From Candidatus Falkowbacteria bacterium (GTDB lineage Bacteria > Patescibacteriota > Patescibacteriia > CAIXNZ01): DNA of 64,000 nucleotides. The notes beneath the pieces were generated by a model. It was not told the DNA's origin and searched no databases. It was given only the letters and a program-made list of their open reading frames with translations. Location of the stretch: assembly GCA_963774955.1 (NCBI GenBank), contig CAVZGV010000006.1:223224-287223 (forward strand), read 5' to 3'. The translations under genes were made by a program, and so were the position numbers. Every line of letters begins with the position of its first letter. Within the stretch, counting starts at the first letter, position 1. Positions 4,194 through 46,185 of this stretch are shown here, piece by piece.

Positions 4194-5765
4194 TCAAATT
4201 CCCTTGTCAAAATCGATTGAAGTTACCGCGTTTTTTTCTGCCAGAGGATCGTAAGTTCCCAAAGCTAAAATAGGATCACCGAATTTATAATTAGCCAGCA
4301 AGCTGTCACTGATATCAATAATCTCTGTTTGCCAGTTTACGCCATAAATGGCCAGCGCCAGGTCCTGGGTACTTAACCAACGTAAAGTACCGCCTCTGGA
4401 GACGGCATAGACCTTGGGATCAGTGGTAATTTTCACCAAACTCCCGGGACGATAAGTAACAATTCCGCCTAAAACATATGAGGCCAAGACACTATCTGAA
4501 ACTGGTTTAACACTGCTAAAATTGCCATACCAACTCAAAAAAGTGGCGGTATCCATAAAAGCATAACGTTTGTTATTAGCACCCAGGTAATAAATTGTGG
4601 TAGACGAGCCTTTGACCAGCTTATTAGCCGCCAGACTCATATTCTGAAAAATTTTAGTAGGATCAATAAGGCCGCTGCCTAATTTACCGACAAAACCAGG
4701 ATTTATAGAATCAATATTATCAGCATTATTTAAAATAATATCTTTAATCTGCGTATTAGTCAGGCTGCTATTGGCTGATTTTATCAAAGCGGCTATGCCC
4801 GAAACTACAGGGGTAGATAAAGAAGTTCCGGAAAAACCACCATCATAATATAAATCGAATTCTGACACATTTTCGCTTTTAACTATAGTACCGAAAAACT
4901 CCTTGCCCGGAGCAATAATATCCACACAATCTGACCCGTAATTGGAAAAAGGCGCCAATTTATTTAGTTGATCGCTGGCGCCGACACCGATTATTATATC
5001 AGTACCATCTTCAGCCCGATGACAAACCGGATACATCGGCGTCAGGTCAAGATTAGTAGAATGTCCTTCAAAATCTTCGTTACCGGCGGCAGCCACCAAA
5101 ACTAAACCGGCTTTATAAGCTCTTTCCAAGGCTAATTCCAAATCAGAATCATAGGTATCGCCCACAAAACTGAAATTTATAATATCAGCTCCGTTATCTA
5201 CGGCATAATCGATGGCCCGGATAACATCAATCGTATTACCGCTGCCATTTTCATTCAGAACTCGTAACGGCATTATTTTACTGCGCCAGGAAATGCCTGT
5301 AATCCCCAAATTATTATTGCCGACAGCCGCGGCTACGCCGCTGATCATGGTCCCATGAAAAACCGCTTCAGCCACACAGGTTTTACGTTCAACGCAATTT
5401 TTGTCAAATTTTGGTGAGGGATCATTGTTATTTTCCACAAAATCCCAGCCACTGATATCATCAATATAGCCGTTTTTATCATTATCTATGCCGTCGCCCA
5501 GAATTTCAGCCTGATTAACCCAAATATTATCATGTAAATCTGGATGGGAAACGTCAATGCCCGAATCAATTATAGCAATCACTGTTTCTGATTTACCGCT
5601 TTCCAAAACCCAGATATTGGGCATTTGTAAATCATCTAAATACCACTGTCTACTGAAAAACGGATCATTAGGCACTAAGCCGGCGGCCAAACAAAAATTA
5701 GCCGTCACCAAAAGGCCGGCCATGATAAATACAGTTAATATTTTGCTAAAAAAACTTCTCGTCAT
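4194..5765 (-). CDS. Secreted subtilisin-like serine protease (peptidase S8) with C-terminal shared surface domain
   Basis: Signal/TM N-terminus. Catalytic triad contexts DSGIDVSHPDL (Asp), HGTMISGVAAA (His), GTSLSTPVVSGIAALI (Ser). C-terminal ~110 aa (YYLGANNKRYAF...LVKITTDPKVYAV...GTLRWL) shared with four other ORFs. Confidence 0.85.
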   Translation of the reverse strand: MTRSFFSKILTVFIMAGLLVTANFCLAAGLVPNDPFFSRQWYLDDLQMPNIWVLESGKSETVIAIIDSGIDVSHPDLHDNIWVNQAEILGDGIDNDKNGYIDDISGWDFVENNNDPSPKFDKNCVERKTCVAEAVFHGTMISGVAAAVGNNNLGITGISWRSKIMPLRVLNENGSGNTIDVIRAIDYAVDNGADIINFSFVGDTYDSDLELALERAYKAGLVLVAAAGNEDFEGHSTNLDLTPMYPVCHRAEDGTDIIIGVGASDQLNKLAPFSNYGSDCVDIIAPGKEFFGTIVKSENVSEFDLYYDGGFSGTSLSTPVVSGIAALIKSANSSLTNTQIKDIILNNADNIDSINPGFVGKLGSGLIDPTKIFQNMSLAANKLVKGSSTTIYYLGANNKRYAFMDTATFLSWYGNFSSVKPVSDSVLASYVLGGIVTYRPGSLVKITTDPKVYAVSRGGTLRWLSTQDLALAIYGVNWQTEIIDISDSLLANYKFGDPILALGTYDPLAEKNAVTSIDFDKGI

Positions 5766-7503: not shown

Positions 7504-7827
7504 TTAAACTTGATATTTAAGATTGATCGGATTATTCCTGTCTTCAGCCCATTTACCAGGGTTACAAAATATATATTCACGCTTGATAGATAATTCATTT
7601 TCGTCCCGGATGACTCGGTCGTGGAACGATTTTTGCCAAGAAAAATGAAAATTATTTTGTATCTTATTTATACCTCGCGACGAAAACGTCTTTAAGGCTC
7701 TTACAATCTCGGACAACCCATGCGTCGTAGGGAACGGTTTTAAACCGTTCCCTACGTCGGTCGGGTCAAAATAATTTTCATTCTCGAATATTTCAATAAT
7801 ACCATGGAAATGATTGGGCATTACCAC
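7504..7827 (-). pseudogene. 5'-truncated IS200/IS605-family (RAYT-like) HUH tyrosine transposase remnant
   Basis: Begins at the HUH motif (MPNHFHGII) and keeps the C-terminal SFHDRVIRDENEL...YIFCNPGKW. Lacks the ~75 N-terminal residues present in paralog 10494..11126. Contains an in-frame GTAG...CTAC palindrome. Confidence 0.6.
7727..7755. repeat. Palindrome GTAGGGAACGGTTTTAAACCGTTCCCTAC embedded in the RAYT remnant coding sequence
   Basis: Read directly. Arms GTAGGGAACGG / CCGTTCCCTAC are reverse complements. The same arms occur in the intact RAYT gene at 10727..10754. Confidence 0.8.
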
Positions 7828-7853
7828 CCATAAATCGGCAATCCCCGCAATCT

Positions 7854-7874
7854 CCCCTCCTTACAAAGGAGGGG
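7854..7874. repeat. REP-like hairpin CCCCTCC-TTACAAA-GGAGGGG
   Basis: Perfect 7-bp stem. One of at least five similar C/G-run hairpins with TTNNNCAA loops in this window. Confidence 0.5.
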
Positions 7875-8067
7875 TTCGGGGGAGGTTCTCGGAGACGTGT
7901 TCAACTCCCTCTCTTTATCCCTCTTATCTAAAAGGGAGATTATAGAAAACAAACATTTAAAATTTTTATCCCTGCCAACGGTTTAATTTACGGTCTATTT
8001 CTCTCCCCATTTTATATATTTTGCTTATCTATATTTTACCACAAAATCCCACTTTTCGCACTAATAT

Positions 8068-10418: not shown

Positions 10419-10448
10419 TGCCCGCCGTAGCCTTGGCGTAGGCGGGTT
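10419..10448. repeat. Hairpin GCCCGCC-GTAGCCTTGGCGTA-GGCGGGT (GTAG-loop hairpin family)
   Basis: Read directly. 14-nt loop related to loops at 17255, 32277, 32396 and 45961 (consensus RTAGCYTYRGCGWA), with different but complementary stems. Confidence 0.6.
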
Positions 10449-10493: not shown

Positions 10494-11126
10494 TTATTTG
10501 TCATTATTTACAGGGTTATTCCTATCCTCCGCCCATTTGCCGGGATTGCAGAAAATGTATTCCCGGATACGAGATAATTCATTTTCGTCCCGGATGACAC
10601 GGTCATGGAATGATTTTTGCCATTTGAATTCATCATGCCCAATCCGGTGGATTAATTTTGACGATGTGGTTTTGAACGCGCCAATGATATCAAATAAAGG
10701 TTTAATTTTTACGACTCCCGTTGTTGGTAGGGAACGGTCGCGACCGTTCCCTACGGTGACAATATTTTCAAAAATTAAACCTTTATTTGCGTTCCCTACG
10801 AGATGAATATCCTTACCCAAAATTTTACCATTATCGGCATATCCCGTTTTATCATCATTAAAATTATAATTTATTTCAATAATTACATGGACATGATTGG
10901 GCATAACCACCCATTCATCCACCCGCACATACGCAAAATTATCCTGCAACCATAATAATTGCTGTGTCACAATTCCCCCCAATTCATTCAATCTCATTTC
11001 ATTATCCACAATCTCGCCAAACATGGATTGCCGGCCTTGGGTACAAATAGTAATAAAATAATATCCTGATTGATTATAATCATATCCCGGCCATCTATTT
11101 AATTTTCGATCCGGTCCTTTGTACAT
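10494..11126 (-). CDS. IS200/IS605-family Y1 HUH transposase, REP-associated (RAYT)-like, apparently intact
   Basis: MPNHVHVII HUH motif. C-terminal FKWQKSFHDRVIRDENELSRIREYIFCNPGKW with the catalytic Tyr region. An extra ~30-aa insertion after the HUH motif is encoded by a palindrome-containing segment. Confidence 0.75.
   Translation of the reverse strand: MYKGPDRKLNRWPGYDYNQSGYYFITICTQGRQSMFGEIVDNEMRLNELGGIVTQQLLWLQDNFAYVRVDEWVVMPNHVHVIIEINYNFNDDKTGYADNGKILGKDIHLVGNANKGLIFENIVTVGNGRDRSLPTTGVVKIKPLFDIIGAFKTTSSKLIHRIGHDEFKWQKSFHDRVIRDENELSRIREYIFCNPGKWAEDRNNPVNNDK
10693..10802. repeat. Inverted-repeat-bounded palindromic insert inside the RAYT coding sequence
   Basis: aaataaaggtttaattttt (10693-10711) and aaaaattaaacctttattt (10768-10786) are inverted repeats flanking the perfect palindrome GTAGGGAACGGTCGCGACCGTTCCCTAC (10727-10754). 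A partial extra right arm gcgttccctacg lies at 10789-10802. The ORF stays open through it. Confidence 0.75.
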
Positions 11127-11248: not shown

Positions 11249-11284
11249 CTCCCCCTTAGACAAGGGGGAGACACAGAGGGGGTT
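11249..11284. repeat. REP-like hairpin CTCCCCC-TTAGACAA-GGGGGAG plus tail ACACAGAGGGGGTT
   Basis: Same hairpin plus tail recurs at 17976-18010. Related copies at 7854, 11369 and 17224. Confidence 0.6.
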
Positions 11285-11368
11285 GAAAAACGTCCCCCAA
11301 ACACAAACCCGCCCCGACTTGCGTCGGGGCGGGTCGCCATTCTATTTCCGCAGCACGCCACCTCACTT

Positions 11369-11392
11369 CCCCCTCCTTAGACAAGGAGGGGG
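11369..11392. repeat. REP-like hairpin CCCCCTCC-TTAGACAA-GGAGGGGG
   Basis: Read directly. Lies between the RAYT gene and the 1166-aa surface protein gene. Confidence 0.55.
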
Positions 11393-11424
11393 CTAGGGGG
11401 AGGTTGACCGAATCGCCCCCTCCC

Positions 11425-15871: not shown

Positions 15872-17212
15872 TTATTCCTTCACCGCCGGAACATCAGCAG
15901 GCTGAACTTCAGCCGGAGCAACCAGGAATTCTTCATTCGCCTTAATCACCTTATCAACCAAGGTCATAATGTCATCTGCTTGTTTGATCATATCAAAAGC
16001 CTGACTAATGGAATTACTGGCCAAAAACTCTCTGGCCTTGGCTAACAGTTTTTCAGCCGCTGCCGGTTTATCTTTTATTTCTTCAATAGTCGGTAAGACT
16101 TCTGCAGGTACAGTTTCCACCGGTTTTACTTCTGGTATAGGCTGTTCGATAACAATATTAGTATTGGTATTAAGATTAGTGTTGGTATTAGCTGGCTTAT
16201 TTTCTTCGGTGGTAACAGTATTAGTCTCAGTCTCAGATTCATTAGCAGCAGCAGCTTCAGCCGCAACAGTTTCCTTGGCCTCCAAAGCTTTAGCGGCGGA
16301 GGCCTCGGCAGCAGCCTTGTCAGCAGCTTCTTTGGCTGCCAAAGCTTTAGCGGCGGCAGCCTTATTGGTAATTACTTTTTCAATATTAGCCTTATCAGTT
16401 TCAATCTTGGTGACTAATTCATCGATCCTGCTGTTCATTTTTTGTTTCAAATCTTGCAGAGCAATTTCTTTATTACCGCCTTCAAATTCCTTGACAATCA
16501 CATCCAAAGCCTTGTCTGCAGTTGATTTGGACGCGGTAATGGCCTTGGCAGTTGCTGTGGCAGTTTCATCATTAGCAGCTACTTCAGGAGTTTTTGTCTG
16601 CTGATCTTTAAGTATATCCACATATTCTTTGGTTTTCTCATCTACTTTATTAGCCAGCTTGGCAGCAGTCTTGCTGTCCGCTTTTTCCAGTTTAGCCAGA
16701 CCGGTTTTGACATTATCCATGCTTTCCTGAAATTTTTTCAAAGAAACCTGAAGATTTTCATTTTTATCAGATTTATCGTTTTCGGTAAGCTTCTGCATTT
16801 CAGTCAGACGTCTGTCAGCAAAGACTATTTCCAAATCAACCTTTTTCTCATCGCTATTGGCCAAACCGACTTGCACTCTTTCAGTGGTCAATTTAAAACC
16901 GTATAAAAGATCACCCGGCAAACTATTTCTGGTGGCGCCTACTGTGGTAATATACGCGCCCAAACCAATGCCGATAATCAAAATCATGGCACCCAAAGGT
17001 TTATAGGCGGAAACCATAAATTGTTTAGCCAGCAAAGCATGCCAGCTGATTTTCTGATTTTTCAAATCAGAAGTCTGGGCTTTTATCTGGCTACACAAAA
17101 TCTCCCGATTGGTCTTTTTCCAGACCAAGTCAGGTTTAATTTCATGCTGTAAATTATTTAATTGTTTTAAGAGATCTTTTTTTTGCATGTATATATATGA
17201 AGATATAAACAT
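15872..17212 (-). CDS. Membrane-anchored coiled-coil protein, DUF5667-like, putative anti-sigma factor partner of the upstream ECF sigma
   Basis: Directly downstream (28-nt gap to a REP hairpin) of the sigma gene. One TM helix. LPGDLLYGFK motif as recalled for DUF5667. Ala/Lys/Glu-rich coiled-coil C-terminal half. Confidence 0.5.
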   Translation of the reverse strand: MFISSYIYMQKKDLLKQLNNLQHEIKPDLVWKKTNREILCSQIKAQTSDLKNQKISWHALLAKQFMVSAYKPLGAMILIIGIGLGAYITTVGATRNSLPGDLLYGFKLTTERVQVGLANSDEKKVDLEIVFADRRLTEMQKLTENDKSDKNENLQVSLKKFQESMDNVKTGLAKLEKADSKTAAKLANKVDEKTKEYVDILKDQQTKTPEVAANDETATATAKAITASKSTADKALDVIVKEFEGGNKEIALQDLKQKMNSRIDELVTKIETDKANIEKVITNKAAAAKALAAKEAADKAAAEASAAKALEAKETVAAEAAAANESETETNTVTTEENKPANTNTNLNTNTNIVIEQPIPEVKPVETVPAEVLPTIEEIKDKPAAAEKLLAKAREFLASNSISQAFDMIKQADDIMTLVDKVIKANEEFLVAPAEVQPADVPAVKE

Positions 17213-17223
17213 CGTACGTATTT

Positions 17224-17280
17224 CTCCCCCTTACCAAGGGGGAGACCAAGCCTGCCCTCCGAAGCTTCAGCGTAGGAGGG
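17224..17280. repeat. Two adjacent hairpins: CTCCCCC-TTACCAA-GGGGGAG and CCCTCC-GAAGCTTCAGCGTA-GGAGGG
   Basis: Read directly. The second belongs to the conserved-loop hairpin family (loop AGCTT.AGCG core). Confidence 0.6.
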
Positions 17281-17288
17281 AGGGGGTT

Positions 17289-31354: not shown

Positions 31355-31807
31355 ATGCCAACATTAGCCACCAATAAAAAAGCCAGATTTGACTATGAGA
31401 TACTGGAAACCTTTGAAGCCGGCATTGTTTTGTCTGGCCAAGAAGTCAAATCAGCCAAGGCCGGCCACATCAACCTAAACGGCGCCTATGTGTTTATAGA
31501 CAAAAAACGCAACGTGTTTTTAATCAATGCCAGCATAACCCTTTACAAGCCAGCCGGCCCCCAGCCAAATTACGATCCCAATCACTCCAGAAAGCTACTT
31601 TTACATCAGCAAGAAATTGATAATTTGGCGGGAAAAATCCAACAAGCAGGATTGACTTTAACCCCTCTTTCATTGTATACTAAACATAACAAAATTAAGG
31701 TAGAAATAGGCTTGGCCCGCGGCAAAAAAAAGTATGATAAACGCGAAACCATACGTAAAAGAGACGACCAACGCCAAATACAGCGCCTTTTAAAAACAAA
31801 AAGATAA
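31355..31807 (+). CDS. smpB: SsrA-binding protein SmpB
   Basis: KKARFDYEILETFEAGIVLSGQEVKS...GAYVFIDKKRNVFLINASIT, near-canonical SmpB. Immediately followed by tmRNA. Confidence 0.9.
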   Translation: MPTLATNKKARFDYEILETFEAGIVLSGQEVKSAKAGHINLNGAYVFIDKKRNVFLINASITLYKPAGPQPNYDPNHSRKLLLHQQEIDNLAGKIQQAGLTLTPLSLYTKHNKIKVEIGLARGKKKYDKRETIRKRDDQRQIQRLLKTKR

Positions 31808-31856
31808 AATAATTCCTAAGTTCTTAGTTATAAGTTCTTAGTTCTGATTTATTAAA

Positions 31857-32243
31857 GGGGATGACCGGTTTCGATAGATTGATCTTTGAACAAAACGGCA
31901 AGCCGAGCTGCTACCATGCTCGTTAAACTGATAGCCACTTTATAAGTGCAAACACATTTTTAAGCAGGGTTAACGCAGCTTTTGCGTTCAACTTTGCTCC
32001 TGTTGCCGCGTAATTGCCGCAACCATTCGGATCTTTGACGCCTAATAGAAGACTCCGGGTGTCAAACTTATTAGGCTCTGTTAAGCAAGGCTCGCCTCTG
32101 CCAACTTAGCAAGAAAACTGGGGCAAGGTATAAGAATTTGGTTAGGATTACTATCTTATATTTTCAACCTAATCCTAAACAAGCTTGTAGATGTTTTGCC
32201 GAAGGCTTTCTAGACGCGGGTTCAATTCCCGCCATCTCCACCC
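31857..32243 (+). ncRNA. ssrA: tmRNA (ssrA)
   Basis: 5' GGGGATGACCGGTTTCGA... and 3' ...GGACGCGGGTTCAATTCCCGCCATCTCCACC form a tRNA-Ala-like acceptor/T-arm with a G3:U70 pair. Directly downstream of smpB. A candidate tag ORF ends ...FAPVAA-TAA at 32011-32013. Confidence 0.8.
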
Positions 32244-32245
32244 CT

Positions 32246-32422
32246 ACACTCCTGTCGTTACAAGGGGTGGTACTCCGTAGCTTTAGCGAAGGAGTACCCG
32301 ATCGCTACTATTTCTTAAACCCGCTTCAGAATATATTCGCTCCTCCGGAGCTTCGGGGTGTAAACACTCCTGTCGTTACAAGGGGTGGTACTCCGTAGCT
32401 TTAGCGAAGGAGTACCCGATCT
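32246..32422. repeat. Two identical 58-bp direct repeats (32246-32303 and 32365-32422), 3 bp after the tmRNA 3' end
   Basis: ACACTCCTGTCGTTACAAGGGGTGGTACTCCGTAGCTTTAGCGAAGGAGTACCCGATC occurs twice. Each contains hairpin GGTACTCC-GTAGCTTTAGCGAA-GGAGTACC. Confidence 0.85.
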
Positions 32423-32471
32423 TTACTACCGCGTCTTAGGGTGTATACACTTATAAAACCAAAACAAAAAA

Positions 32472-32738
32472 ATGGAATACATTGTTTACATTTTACAAAG
32501 TGAAAAAGACGGAAGTCATTATACAGGGCTCACTACTGACTTAAGGCTAAGAATCAAAAGTCATAATGAAGGAACTTCAATATATTCTTCGTCCAAAAAG
32601 CCTTTTATCCTTGTATGGCACTGCTCATTCCCTGATAAAAAATTAGCCGCTAAGTTTGAACATTATTTAAAAACAGGCTCCGGCATAGCCTTTCGCAACA
32701 AAAGATTAATAAATTACCATAAAAATATAAAACATTAA
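32472..32738 (+). CDS. GIY-YIG nuclease family small protein
   Basis: YIVYILQSEKDGSHYTGLTTDLRLRIKSHNEG matches the GIY...YIG motif with conserved R and N. Confidence 0.7.
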   Translation: MEYIVYILQSEKDGSHYTGLTTDLRLRIKSHNEGTSIYSSSKKPFILVWHCSFPDKKLAAKFEHYLKTGSGIAFRNKRLINYHKNIKH

Positions 32739-32771
32739 TTAGTAAAAATTTCGTGATAATTCGTTCAACTT

Positions 32772-33335
32772 ATGAAACGTATCAAATTCGGCCGCAGGCC
32801 GTTAATAAAACTTCTTCCCCAGGAAATTTATCCGGTTAATGAAAAAATCCGCGAACCAGAACTTCGGGTCATTGATGAAAACAACCAGATGGTCGGTGTT
32901 ATTCCAACAGCTCAGGCCTTGCAAATGGCTAAAGAACGAGAATTAGACCTGGTTGTAGTTTCCCCTAAAGCCCAGCCACCTGTAGCTAAATTTTTAAGTT
33001 ATAGCAGTTATAAATACCAAAAAGAGAAAGAAGCACGCAAACAAAAAGCTTTGCAAAAATCAGCGGAAATGAAAGAAATCAGACTTTCTCCAAGAATTGG
33101 GCGACATGACTTGGATATTAGACTAAAACAAGCCGAAAAATTCATCCAACGCGGAGATAAAGTAGTTATCATTGTCATGATGAAAGGTCGCGAGAAGCAG
33201 CATGCTGATTTGGGCCGACAAATACTGGAAACCTTTATTAAGGACCTGAGTTTGATTATTAAAATAAAATTAGAACAAGAAATTAAGCGCCAAGGCGGTA
33301 ACTTCTCAGCCATTATTCTGGCAGACAAGGCCTAA
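32772..33335 (+). CDS. infC: Translation initiation factor IF-3
   Basis: INEKIREPELRVIDENNQMVGV N-domain. C-domain IRLSPRIGRHDLDIRLKQAEKFIQRGDKVVIIVMMKGRE. Operon with rpmI-rplT. Confidence 0.9.
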   Translation: MKRIKFGRRPLIKLLPQEIYPVNEKIREPELRVIDENNQMVGVIPTAQALQMAKERELDLVVVSPKAQPPVAKFLSYSSYKYQKEKEARKQKALQKSAEMKEIRLSPRIGRHDLDIRLKQAEKFIQRGDKVVIIVMMKGREKQHADLGRQILETFIKDLSLIIKIKLEQEIKRQGGNFSAIILADKA

Positions 33336-45407: not shown

Positions 45408-45722
45408 TTATTTTACAATTGAAAATCTTAACATTAACTTTAATCCTTTGCGCCCCTTTGTTGTTTTAAGATACTTTTCGCGCCTTTTGGCGTCTCTTTT
45501 ATCTTTATAGGCTTCATAAAAAATTAAATCCCAAGGCAGGTAGGGTTTTGTTGCTGCCGATAGACCATTATTATGCTCATTTAATCGTCTATCAAGATGT
45601 ATAGTATAGCCGACGTAAAATTGAGTAGGTTTGATTTTACTTTGTAAATAATAAACGAAGTACATAAATTTATAAATTATTATATCAATATTATAGCAAG
45701 TGGCCGCGAGAAATGTAACCAC
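45408..45722 (-). CDS. GIY-YIG nuclease family small protein (likely true start at internal Met 45665, MYFVYYLQS)
   Basis: FYVGYTIHLDRRLNEHNNG matches the YIG plus R/N core. Second GIY-YIG gene in the window, again beside a stable RNA gene. Confidence 0.65.
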   Translation of the reverse strand: MVTFLAATCYNIDIIIYKFMYFVYYLQSKIKPTQFYVGYTIHLDRRLNEHNNGLSAATKPYLPWDLIFYEAYKDKRDAKRREKYLKTTKGRKGLKLMLRFSIVK

Positions 45723-45800
45723 CGAGAGCGGCCAGAACCAGAACTCGCTCTGCTTGTTCGGTACTGGCCAGCCCCGAACCGAACAAAATCGTCGGTAACT

Positions 45801-45846
45801 AAAACAACACCCATTTTATCGGGTGCTGTTTTGTTCTGGTTCGGGG
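45801..45846. repeat. 48-bp direct repeat copy 2, abutting the tRNA-Asp 3' end
   Basis: AAAACAACACCCATTTTATCGGGTGCTGTTTTGTTCTGGTTCGGGG. Ends 1 nt before the tRNA. Confidence 0.75.
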
Positions 45847-45847
45847 C

Positions 45848-45920
45848 GGAGCGGACGAGACTCGGACTCGCGACCTCTGCCGTGACAGGGCAGCGCTCTA
45901 ACCAACTGAGCTACCGCTCC
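45848..45920 (-). tRNA. tRNA-Asp (anticodon GTC)
   Basis: Reverse complement GGAGCGGTAGCTCAGTTGGTTAGAGCGCTGCCCTGTCACGGCAGAGGTCGCGAGTCCGAGTCTCGTCCGCTCC folds as a cloverleaf with anticodon loop CUGUCAC. CCA not encoded. Confidence 0.85.
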
Positions 45921-45954
45921 AATTTTGAAGTTCTTTTTACCAACTGCTTGCCCG

Positions 45955-45986
45955 CCATAGCTTTAGCGAAGGCGGGAGCTACCGCT
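45955..45986. repeat. Hairpin CCCGCC-ATAGCTTTAGCGAA-GGCGGG followed by a 13-nt duplicate of the tRNA-Asp 5' end (GAGCTACCGCTCC)
   Basis: Read directly. Loop nearly identical to the loops in the tmRNA-adjacent direct repeats. Confidence 0.7.
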
Positions 45987-46185
45987 CCAAAATAAAAATA
46001 AGGTTTTCAAGCCTTGTGAAGCTATTATAGCATTTAATTTTTACCTTGGCAAGAGTTAATCCCCTGAAATTTACCCCTTCTTCAATCGCCTAAAATAATC
46101 TTATATATCCGCATTTTGAGTGTCTGGACAAATTTTACAAAATAGCATAAGGTTGTAATGTATTATAATTAATAACCTTAAAAAA

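Follow-up and report, generated by a model that had tools for sequence, protein, structure and literature searches.

Tandem hairpin modules between ssrA and a small GIY-YIG nuclease gene in a Candidatus Falkowbacteria genome

The window analyzed here is the whole of a 64,000-nucleotide (nt) stretch of Candidatus Falkowbacteria DNA (GenBank assembly GCA_963774955.1, contig CAVZGV010000006.1, positions 223,224 to 287,223). Near its middle lie smpB, the transfer-messenger RNA (tmRNA) gene ssrA, a pair of 58-bp direct repeats, a gene for a small GIY-YIG nuclease, and infC, beyond which the order continues with rpmI and rplT (Table 1). Our subject is the repeat pair, the hairpins that it contains, and their association with the GIY-YIG gene and its relatives. 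The tmRNA gene is matched over its full length by Rfam RF00023 at 31857-32243 (133 bits), ARAGORN calls the tag ANTFLSRVNAAFAFNFAPVAA, and the terminal CCA is partly encoded, the gene reading ...CTCCACC. No intrinsic terminator was called by a scan of the + strand of 31700-32900. A candidate promoter picked out by eye at 32423-32450 (-35 TTTACT, -10 TATACA) was rejected, since a promoter scan of the same interval gave nothing on the + strand.

The full 58-mer, ACACTCCTGTCGTTACAAGGGGTGGTACTCCGTAGCTTTAGCGAAGGAGTACCCGATC, begins ACACTCCTG and ends CCCGATC. It occurs exactly twice in the 64 kb, with no mismatches between the copies, and no chance match was found across 100 shuffles. Similarity stretches to 65 nt at 97% identity, the last 7 nt being less identical than the 58-mer, and the copies are spaced 118 nt apart. 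A first-pass annotation of the sequence had described the repeat as perfect and had placed copy 1 correctly, but its position for copy 2, 32365-32422, is amended here to 32364-32421. The repeat does lie, as that annotation said, within 3 bp of the tmRNA 3' end (a gap of 3 nt, or 2 nt by the Rfam end), and the open reading frame (ORF) that it assigned to the GIY-YIG family at 32472 matches PF01541. In an independent Logan assembly (ERR12035938), two contigs encode the identical SmpB and GIY-YIG proteins; the smpB contig stops approximately at the end of the tmRNA gene and the GIY-YIG contig starts about 80 nt upstream of the gene, within copy 2. Because a real repeat that exceeds the k-mer of the assembler produces such breaks, they fit a real repeat and not an artifact of the assembly studied here.

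Table 1. Features of the window discussed in the text
Feature	Coordinates	Strand	Details
RAYT-like ORF	7504-7827	-	NF047646, 48 bits, E 1e-12, below 80-bit cut-off
Solo hpB	10419..10448	+	stem CCCGCC, core GTAGCCTTGGCGTA; 46 nt from RAYT-like ORF stop; 40.2 bits, E 6e-10
RAYT-like ORF	10494-11126	-	NF047646, 60 bits, E 2e-16, below 80-bit cut-off
Solo hpB	17253..17282	+	stem CCCTCC, core GAAGCTTCAGCGTA; model match 40.7 bits
smpB	31355..31807	+	conserved neighbor upstream; PF01668 SmpB, E 1.3e-53
ssrA (tmRNA), one-piece	31857..32242	+	ARAGORN; Rfam RF00023
5' half of reverse hpB, CACCCC-TAC	32239..32247	+	outer arm overlaps final 4 nt of tmRNA gene
Repeat copy 1	32246..32303	+	exact repeat; hpA 32247-32269, forward hpB 32269-32298
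About 90 extra nt relative to L001 (copy 1 and 35-nt tail)	32248..32338	+	single 90-column gap in pairwise alignment; borders uncertain by a few nt
3' part of split reverse hpB, GCTCC-TCC-GGAGC-TTC-GGGGTG	32339..32360	+	aligns with reverse hpB of L001
Repeat copy 2	32364..32421	+	hpA 32365-32387, forward hpB 32387-32416; model match 46.2 bits
GIY-YIG nuclease gene, UPF0213/YhbQ type, 88 aa	32472..32738	+	PF01541, E 5.7e-15
infC	32772..33335	+	IF3_N and IF3_C domains; conserved downstream neighbor, bounds the cassette slot
Second small GIY-YIG gene, 85 aa from ATG	45408..45665	-	PF01541, E 7.7e-17, 61.8 bits
tRNA-Asp(GTC)	45844..45921	-	ARAGORN, Rfam
hpB in D-loop position of duplicated tRNA-Asp 5' fragment	45949..45978	+	model match 38.2 bits

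Each repeat copy folds into two neighboring hairpins, termed here hpA and hpB (RNA z = -3.07, DNA z = -2.19). The first has the form CACTCC-loop-GGGGTG. The second is GGTACTCC-GTAGCTTTAGCGAA-GGAGTACC with the conserved core GWAGCYNNRGCGWA; in copy 1 the core GTAGCTTTAGCGAA occupies 32277-32290, and the hairpin matches our hpB covariance model at 46.2 bits (E 7e-12). The tails 3' of hpB read CCGATCGCTACT and CCGATCTTTACT. The 14-nt core consists of a 3x3 internal loop (GWA/GWA) around a mini-helix, GCY-NN-RGC, and it is found with different yet complementary stems at 10419-10448, 17253-17282, and 45949-45978. The last of these confirms the earlier remark that the hairpin core recurs beside tRNA-Asp (ATAGCTTTAGCGAA at 45957-45970, with another stem, CCCGCC/GGCGGG).

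Several lines of evidence indicate that hpB is a conserved element. In 978 kb, made up of the window and related loci, the strict core occurs 45 times where about 1.9 occurrences are expected, and at least five consecutive base pairs flank it in 35 of the 45, an arrangement expected in about 0.7%. Among 32 distinct copies, which were selected for having at least five pairs, 89% of stem cells are paired, compared with 73% after shuffling, and double-sided changes number 65 cells against 27 in shuffles; none of 500 shuffles reached the observed values. Pairing falls to 27-53% when the partner is slid by 1-3 columns. The sixth stem pair, which lay outside the selection, is paired in 30 of the 32 copies, and the inner Y-R pair alternates between T-A (27 copies) and C-G (5 copies). 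Rfam 15 at the gathering threshold recovered only tmRNA and tRNA in the whole window, and searches of 32230-32480 at E up to 10 gave no match for the hairpins.

The manner in which the stems vary bears on whether hpB acts as DNA or as RNA. Under an orientation-neutral filter the stem mismatches are symmetric (G.T 32, A.C 26), and on the sense transcript A.C mismatches (35) outnumber G.U pairs (23). Moreover, hpB occurs in both orientations inside a single locus, and at 10419 and 17253 the solo copies run antisense to the genes that they adjoin. Taken together, these features favor a palindrome at the DNA level over a structure in the sense RNA; the mismatch symmetry speaks against a sense-RNA structure without proving a role for the DNA.

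We also observed that the hpB core, G-TA-GCT…AGC-G (32277-32290 and all cores), is like the U8-A9-D-stem segment of tRNA, GTAGCTC…GAGCG, and that the outer stem has the length of an acceptor stem (6-8 bp). The hairpin may derive from, or mimic, the 5' portion of a tRNA; neither likeness is relied on here.

The organism belongs to the Patescibacteria (Parcubacteria), and the best matches to the window's SmpB come from two metagenome-assembled genomes of Lac Pavin sediment (78-80% identity), designated L001 and L002 in our numbering of related loci. L001, the closest relative, carries a near-identical tmRNA and an 89% identical GIY-YIG protein, followed by infC. Its spacer reads tmRNA-CTC[CACCCC TAC GCTCC TATC GGAGC TTC GGGGTG]TAA-[hpA][hpB]-…ATG, in which the first bracketed element is an intact hpB in reverse orientation (model match 4876-4911, minus strand, 26.3 bits; DNA fold z = -4.25), the start of its outer arm being formed by the final nucleotides of the tmRNA gene. 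The window equals L001 plus about 90 nt placed between the TAC and the GCTCC of this reverse hairpin, so that the extra unit splits the reverse hpB into the two parts listed in Table 1, and by alignment copy 2 is the counterpart of the lone copy of L001.

The number of units varies among other relatives as well: one in L001 and L081, two in L082 and L083, and at least three in L118. The units of L082 and of L083 are 76-90% identical, and two of those in L118 are 98-100% identical over 86 nt. The order tmRNA-GIY-YIG-infC is common to L001, L081, L082, and L083, while the L118 contig stops short of tmRNA and infC. The GCTCC…GGGGTG element of the reverse hpB also lies between units in L118 and L083, and the window's tail (…ATTTCTTAA…) resembles, by eye, the inter-unit tails of these two loci. 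The units are arranged head to tail, with a period of 118 nt in the window. Because relatives hold one, two, or at least three units, the 58-bp pair is therefore the two-unit state of a tandem module that varies in copy number. The comparison of related ssrA loci, proposed in the first-pass annotation as a check, thus revealed a polymorphism in the number of units and not the occupied and empty att sites envisaged there. The window's cassette, by which we mean the leader with its hairpins and the GIY-YIG gene, is old, since it has no right-hand duplicate of the tmRNA end and its position between ssrA and infC is common to relatives; its hairpin module is dynamic.

L002, whose SmpB is 80% identical, has no GIY-YIG gene between ssrA and infC. 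In its place (4965-5350) is an ORF that, by eye, looks like a four-helix bundle resembling 23S_rRNA_IVP. Between the tmRNA and this ORF, directly after the former, comes a long-range inverted repeat of 15 bp without mismatches, ATAAATTTTTACTTC...GAAGTAAAAATTTAT. The architecture is the same, with other cargo and another sequence.

Placement behind a stable-RNA gene extends to the family as a whole. Our family sample comprised 80 metagenomic loci encoding relatives of the GIY-YIG protein. A tRNA or tmRNA gene, t(m)RNA for short, ends on the same strand 33-521 nt before the GIY-YIG start in 51 of the 65 loci with enough upstream sequence, and a rescue with Rfam adds four, giving 55 of 69 (~80%). 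The targets are tmRNA and tRNA-Ala, Asp, Glu, Ser, His, Leu, Gly, Phe, Arg, Met, and Tyr; tRNA-Pro joins them when ORFs called by hidden Markov model are counted, which brings the total to 12 tRNA species and tmRNA. Both stable-RNA genes of the window, for tmRNA and tRNA-Asp, have a GIY-YIG gene downstream.

The hairpin is concentrated around the nuclease gene. The hpB covariance model has 112 matches in 332 kb of GIY-YIG-anchored loci and 9 in 582 kb of SmpB-anchored loci, a roughly 20-fold enrichment, and five of those nine adjoin GIY-YIG genes of one subfamily, A. Relative to the GIY-YIG gene, 82 of 105 matches fall in the 400 nt upstream, nine just downstream, and one inside. Of the 26 matches that start within a few nucleotides of a t(m)RNA 3' end, every one is reversed, and forward copies lie nearer the GIY-YIG gene than reverse ones. 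In many loci a TATAAT-like box stands 6-12 nt ahead of the ATG, with a forward hpB just upstream. Subfamily A has the hairpin in 57 of 72 cases, against 10 of 31 for other GIY-YIG subfamilies; some of the latter bear other hairpins, such as the CCCGA…TCGGG of the tRNA-Asp type. Each GIY-YIG subfamily seems to have a leader motif of its own. Three members of other subfamilies behind tmRNA (L021, L045, and L080, at ~4850-5050) were seen to share a different conserved leader, TCGACTCG…CGCTCRTGGTAAACCA, right after the tmRNA 3' end.

A typical cassette can be described in five parts, not all of which are present at every locus. A reverse hpB comes first, its outer arm overlapping the final 2-8 nt of the t(m)RNA gene. 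It is followed by optional extra hairpins and a terminator-like hairpin, often inside a 10-12-bp long-range inverted repeat, and then by one or more forward copies of hpB just upstream of the TATAAT-like box and ATG. The nuclease gene is the only one encoded and specifies a UPF0213-type GIY-YIG protein of 80-90 aa. Younger copies have, in addition, one more forward hpB and, over 12-26 bp, a duplicated t(m)RNA 3' end.

The protein itself is little more than a catalytic domain. The PF01541 match of the window protein scores 55.8 bits against a cut-off of 22.6 and spans residues 3-68 of 88. Homologues are single-domain throughout, 90 of 94 being 78-92 aa long, and across the 94 the catalytic residues are highly conserved (Y6 98%, Y17 98%, R27 100%, H31 100%, E63 96%). 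No Asn column near the C-terminus reaches 85% conservation among these homologues, and N76 of the window protein is not common to three aligned relatives. There is no room for a DNA-binding domain that reads sequence, which favors recognition of a structure (hairpin or cruciform) over recognition of a long homing site. PADLOC and NCBIfam gave no name for either of the window's GIY-YIG proteins. Searches of the Protein Data Bank matched 1ZG2 (UPF0213 protein BH0048, E 3.7e-10) and 1YWL (EF2693, E 6e-4), members of the same family with a single GIY-YIG (URI) domain; the solved UPF0213/YhbQ structures are deposited solely as hypothetical proteins. A faint match (E 0.6) was to SLX1 (7WME), a eukaryotic structure-specific nuclease. 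Literature searches found no paper on UPF0213/YhbQ GIY-YIG proteins, and to our knowledge the family has neither an assigned function nor a known rule of genomic context.

Several observations point to movement of the cassettes. In 11 of 55 loci, 12-26 nt of the t(m)RNA 3' end are exactly repeated just past the cassette, compared with none in 200 shuffles; a twelfth candidate, in L123, was discarded as really a second tRNA-Arg gene. The second copy often precedes what appears to be the original terminator of the t(m)RNA gene, and in five loci the left edge of the duplicate falls within the T-loop. Cassettes between such duplicates measure ~330-1050 bp. In L119, for instance, 18 bp of the tRNA-Gly 3' end are directly repeated on either side of a 327-bp cassette, and the hpB copies at the two ends of the cassette are inverted (21 nt, 86% complementary). 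Copies of hpB are also found downstream of the gene, beside the right-hand duplicate. Closely related proteins occupy different targets: proteins 92% identical lie behind tmRNA in L090 and behind tRNA-Ala in L105, and others 81-86% identical behind tmRNA and tRNA-Glu. Decayed cassettes are present (premature stops in L106 and L116), as are nested hairpins, with a terminator within the hpB loop in L091 and an hpB within an hpB loop in L118. Insertions into the reverse hpB are seen in L083, L118, and the window, which also has an hpB nested in the D-loop position of its pseudo-tRNA-Asp. Viral contigs scanned by protein alignment gave a single distant match, which makes a phage vector unlikely.

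Two further loci show arrangements of their own. At 2835-3913 of L130 a cassette within 26-nt repeats of the tmRNA 3' end holds two extra small ORFs, by eye a DUF433-type antitoxin-like and a PIN-like toxin-like ORF, which may be acquired cargo. Downstream of the tmRNA in L039 (4873-5315), where there is no GIY-YIG gene, parts of the tmRNA 3' end recur among hairpins in direct (17 nt) and inverted (GTGGAGATGG) orientation, a pattern that suggests repeated break and repair at the site.

We regard the pair as probably, if by no means securely, two tandem DNA modules of hpA and hpB that form part of the leader sequence in a small mobile cassette, which has settled at the ssrA 3' end. On this reading, t(m)RNA genes are the targets of a mobile UPF0213-type GIY-YIG cassette for which hpB would serve as the cis-element. 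In the mechanism that we propose, hpB would be a cis-acting DNA hairpin or cruciform recognized by the structure-specific GIY-YIG nuclease, which would act as well on hairpin-forming DNA of t(m)RNA genes. Breaks would fall at loops, whether in hpB or in the stretches of t(m)RNA genes that encode the T-, D-, and anticodon loops, and their repair might copy cassette or hairpin DNA into the loops. Such loop breaks and copying repair could account for the insertions at t(m)RNA 3' ends, the nesting of hairpin within hairpin, and the variation in unit number, to which unequal recombination or slippage between units could also contribute. The window's extra unit could have come from a nested insertion or from unequal exchange between units.

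The stronger proposition, that hpB and the 80-90-aa GIY-YIG protein form a new minimal mobile element, is offered tentatively, as a possibility that we would not bet on. Its nuclease would read its own hairpin and the T-arm DNA of t(m)RNA genes, insert a cassette of ~0.3-1 kb at 3' ends while regenerating the gene, and seed nested hairpins. The alternative of a self-propagating module of GIY-YIG gene and hairpin, which the first-pass annotation had raised beside its att reading, agrees well with the family-level evidence, in which hairpin and gene are found together at dozens of diverged loci.

A number of points weigh against the mobile-cassette reading. The tie between nuclease and hpB is drawn from co-occurrence, and hitch-hiking in one inherited cassette could explain it. 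The selection of copies for at least five pairs inflates part of the pairing statistic. No right-hand duplicate is detectable in ~80% of cassettes, and the window's ssrA cassette has no flanking duplicates, is syntenic across relatives with proteins 70-89% identical, and is locally behaving as a vertically inherited gene. Tyrosine integrases, too, make direct repeats with the geometry of T-loop to 3' end, and an integrase could mobilize the cassettes in trans. Finally, RNA processing needs could lie behind two features, the invariable overlap between reverse hpB and t(m)RNA 3' end and the long-range inverted repeats that surround terminators.

This last point leads to the alternative that survives best, although we consider it unlikely: that the hairpins work in RNA, as 3'-trailer, processing, or insulation signals that free the tmRNA from a cassette transcribed together with it, in the manner of the intervening sequences (IVSs) of rRNA, or as regulators of the GIY-YIG mRNA. 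That the duplication merely adds a second such signal is unlikely to the same degree. Such a role would suit the invariable overlap of reverse hpB with the t(m)RNA end, the fixed position of forward hpB before the TATAAT box and ATG, and the 10-12-bp inverted repeats that enclose terminator-like hairpins after t(m)RNA genes, which recur in the sequence-unrelated leader of tRNA-Asp. It also has a precedent in rRNA genes of the candidate phyla radiation (CPR), where GIY-YIG and 23S_rRNA_IVP ORFs sit in non-intron insertions at stem-loops (PMC11270868). It accords poorly with the presence of both orientations on one transcript, the antisense solo copies, the excess of A.C over G.U on the sense strand, the failure to find an Rfam match at E = 10 or a + strand terminator at the locus, and the hpB copies beyond the gene, beside the right-hand duplicate.

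An improbable account, and one notch weaker, is that the pair arose by local tandem duplication or gene conversion in a hairpin-rich spacer and has no cis function. The two copies are identical over 58 nt with diverged tails, the border homologies ACxCTCC and GGGGTG would favor slippage or unequal exchange, and unit number differs among relatives. Neutral duplication explains copy number but not the conservation of the core with covarying stems across very diverged lineages, nor the fixed positions and orientations of hpB. As the proximate event behind the extra unit, it is compatible with the mobile-cassette reading.

Very unlikely, in our judgment, is that hpB is a repetitive extragenic palindromic (REP)-like element moved by the window's two proteins resembling REP-associated tyrosine transposases (RAYTs; IS200-type Y1), its proximity to GIY-YIG genes being secondary. 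One copy of hpB does lie close to the first such ORF, and the core holds two G(T/A)AG tetranucleotides ~11 nt apart, GTAG being the RAYT recognition motif in Escherichia coli REPs. Both RAYT-like ORFs, however, score below the curated cut-off (60 and 48 against 80 bits), and the longer has no obvious catalytic Tyr in the usual place. They are flanked by a different, CCCCCTTAGACAAGGGGG-type hairpin family, RAYT genes are found in none of the 160 related loci, and 92 of 105 hpB matches lie within ~500 nt of a GIY-YIG gene.

The weakest alternative, hardly credible for this pair, is the one that the first-pass annotation named first, namely that the repeats are attL and attR, or an excision scar, of an integrase element at the tmRNA 3' end. 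In its favor, integration classically occurs at t(m)RNA 3' ends, and true 3'-end duplicates, some with their left edge in the T-loop, do flank related cassettes. Against it, the 58-mer bears no resemblance to the end of the tmRNA gene, ...GGGTTCAATTCCCGCCATCTCCACC, the copies enclose 60 bp and no gene, no recombinase ORF lies between ssrA and infC, beyond the GIY-YIG gene there is no copy of the tmRNA 3' end (the best local match scores 7, p = 0.585), and site-specific recombination does not yield the one to at least three tandem units of relatives. The intuition behind it, that a t(m)RNA 3' end had been targeted, holds for whole cassettes at about one-fifth of loci and fails for the 58-bp pair, which is the wrong repeat.

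Comparison with known systems reveals partial likenesses. The Seg family of phage T4 consists of free-standing GIY-YIG homing endonuclease genes, SegB lying within a tRNA gene cluster (PMC2330249). As there, the GIY-YIG genes described here lie beside or among tRNA genes, outside introns and near highly conserved targets, their presence varies between relatives, and one gene family serves several targets. Seg proteins, however, exceed 200 aa, with a separate DNA-binding domain and a long asymmetric site, whereas ours have 78-92 aa and the catalytic domain only; in addition, the cassettes bear a conserved hairpin and partly have duplicated target 3' ends, and the family is near-absent from viral contigs. 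Integrase-borne islands share the t(m)RNA target and, in 11 loci, the order of intact gene, insert, and 12-26-bp 3'-end copy from or near the T-loop. In contrast to these islands, the cassettes encode no recombinase and measure just ~330-1050 bp, the 58-bp repeat is not a 3'-end duplication, and the window's ssrA locus lacks such a duplicate.

REPs and their hairpin-forming doublets (REPINs) with RAYTs likewise combine a single-copy small nuclease gene with flanking inverted cognate hairpins, have solo copies too, and show conserved unpaired bases on variable stems. They differ in that the nuclease has an HUH and not a GIY-YIG fold and that their hairpins are dispersed by the hundreds, whereas hpB clusters at the gene and is strictly tied to t(m)RNA 3' ends. 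The host group is shared with the CPR rRNA genes, in which IVS-like non-intron insertions encode GIY-YIG or 23S_rRNA_IVP proteins (PMC11270868). Both small ORF types (the second by eye, in L002) and the stem-loops of stable-RNA genes are shared, but those insertions lie inside rRNA genes and the present cassettes at tRNA and tmRNA 3' ends; that report describes no hpB motif, no duplication of target 3' ends, and no tRNA association.

Full-text literature searches found no description of the association between GIY-YIG genes, t(m)RNA genes, and hairpins. The components are of known kinds (a selfish GIY-YIG gene, targeting of tRNA ends, mobile hairpins); what appears to be new is their combination, along with the hpB motif. 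Placement behind t(m)RNA genes in ~80% of loci, together with a conserved cognate hairpin, supplies a testable functional hypothesis for this UPF0213/YhbQ subfamily, and the minimal-element proposition, if true, would give the widespread family its first function. If autonomous, the cassette would be among the smallest mobile units known, and a GIY-YIG domain on its own would move it as DNA; we know of no described transposon that such a domain moves. On the practical side, short-read assemblies of Patescibacteria break at ssrA and tRNA loci because of the modules, which also create pseudo-tRNA fragments and can mislead the annotation of tRNA, tmRNA, and genomic islands.

The window holds five hpB copies in all, every one on the + strand, a bias that is not significant because only four independent events are represented. 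The copy at 17253 lies in a 76-nt intergenic gap between a gene for an extracytoplasmic function (ECF) sigma factor and a DUF5667 gene. Two weaker model matches, at 16276-16305 (25 bits) and 16333-16362 (19 bits), were set aside as probably coincidental; they lie inside the Ala/Lys-rich coding repeat of the DUF5667 gene, where the codons of the …AAKALAAKEAA… repeat mimic the hpB core (AAAGCTTTAGCGGC).

The copy beside tRNA-Asp interrupts a partial duplicate of that gene. A 15-nt direct repeat, GAGCTACCGCTCCAA, at 45908-45922 and 45976-45990 duplicates the tRNA-Asp 5' end, and on the minus strand the pseudo-tRNA-Asp reads TTGGAGCGGTAGCTC[hpB]CAGTTGGT. The second GIY-YIG gene, which belongs to another subfamily, lies 178 nt downstream of tRNA-Asp, and its product is 39% identical to the first (BLASTP). 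The locus thus formed is a second one built on the same logic: along 45408-45990 the minus-strand order is the 5'-end duplicate with hpB, the intact tRNA-Asp, an inverted repeat, and the GIY-YIG gene; the leader contains a long-range inverted repeat, CCCCGAACCAGAAC/GTTCTGGTTC, that encloses a terminator-like hairpin. Duplicates of 22 nt of the tRNA 5' end were also noted in the related loci L014, L017, L127, L155, and L160, and in L155 a unit of tRNA-Asp and GIY-YIG gene looks like an insertion into a resident tRNA-Asp.

Around the RAYT-like ORFs, the longer one carries a GC-rich palindromic insert, GTAGGGAACGGTCGCGACCGTTCCCTAC, in its coding sequence. A second family of GC-rich hairpins, with a poly-C stem, a loop of TTAGACAA, TTACAAAG, or TTACCAAG, and a poly-G stem, occurs at 11250-11275, 11360-11395, 7850-7885, and 17225-17247, flanking the RAYT-like ORFs and adjoining the solo hpB at 17253. 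The RAYT-like genes may have their REP partner in this second family.

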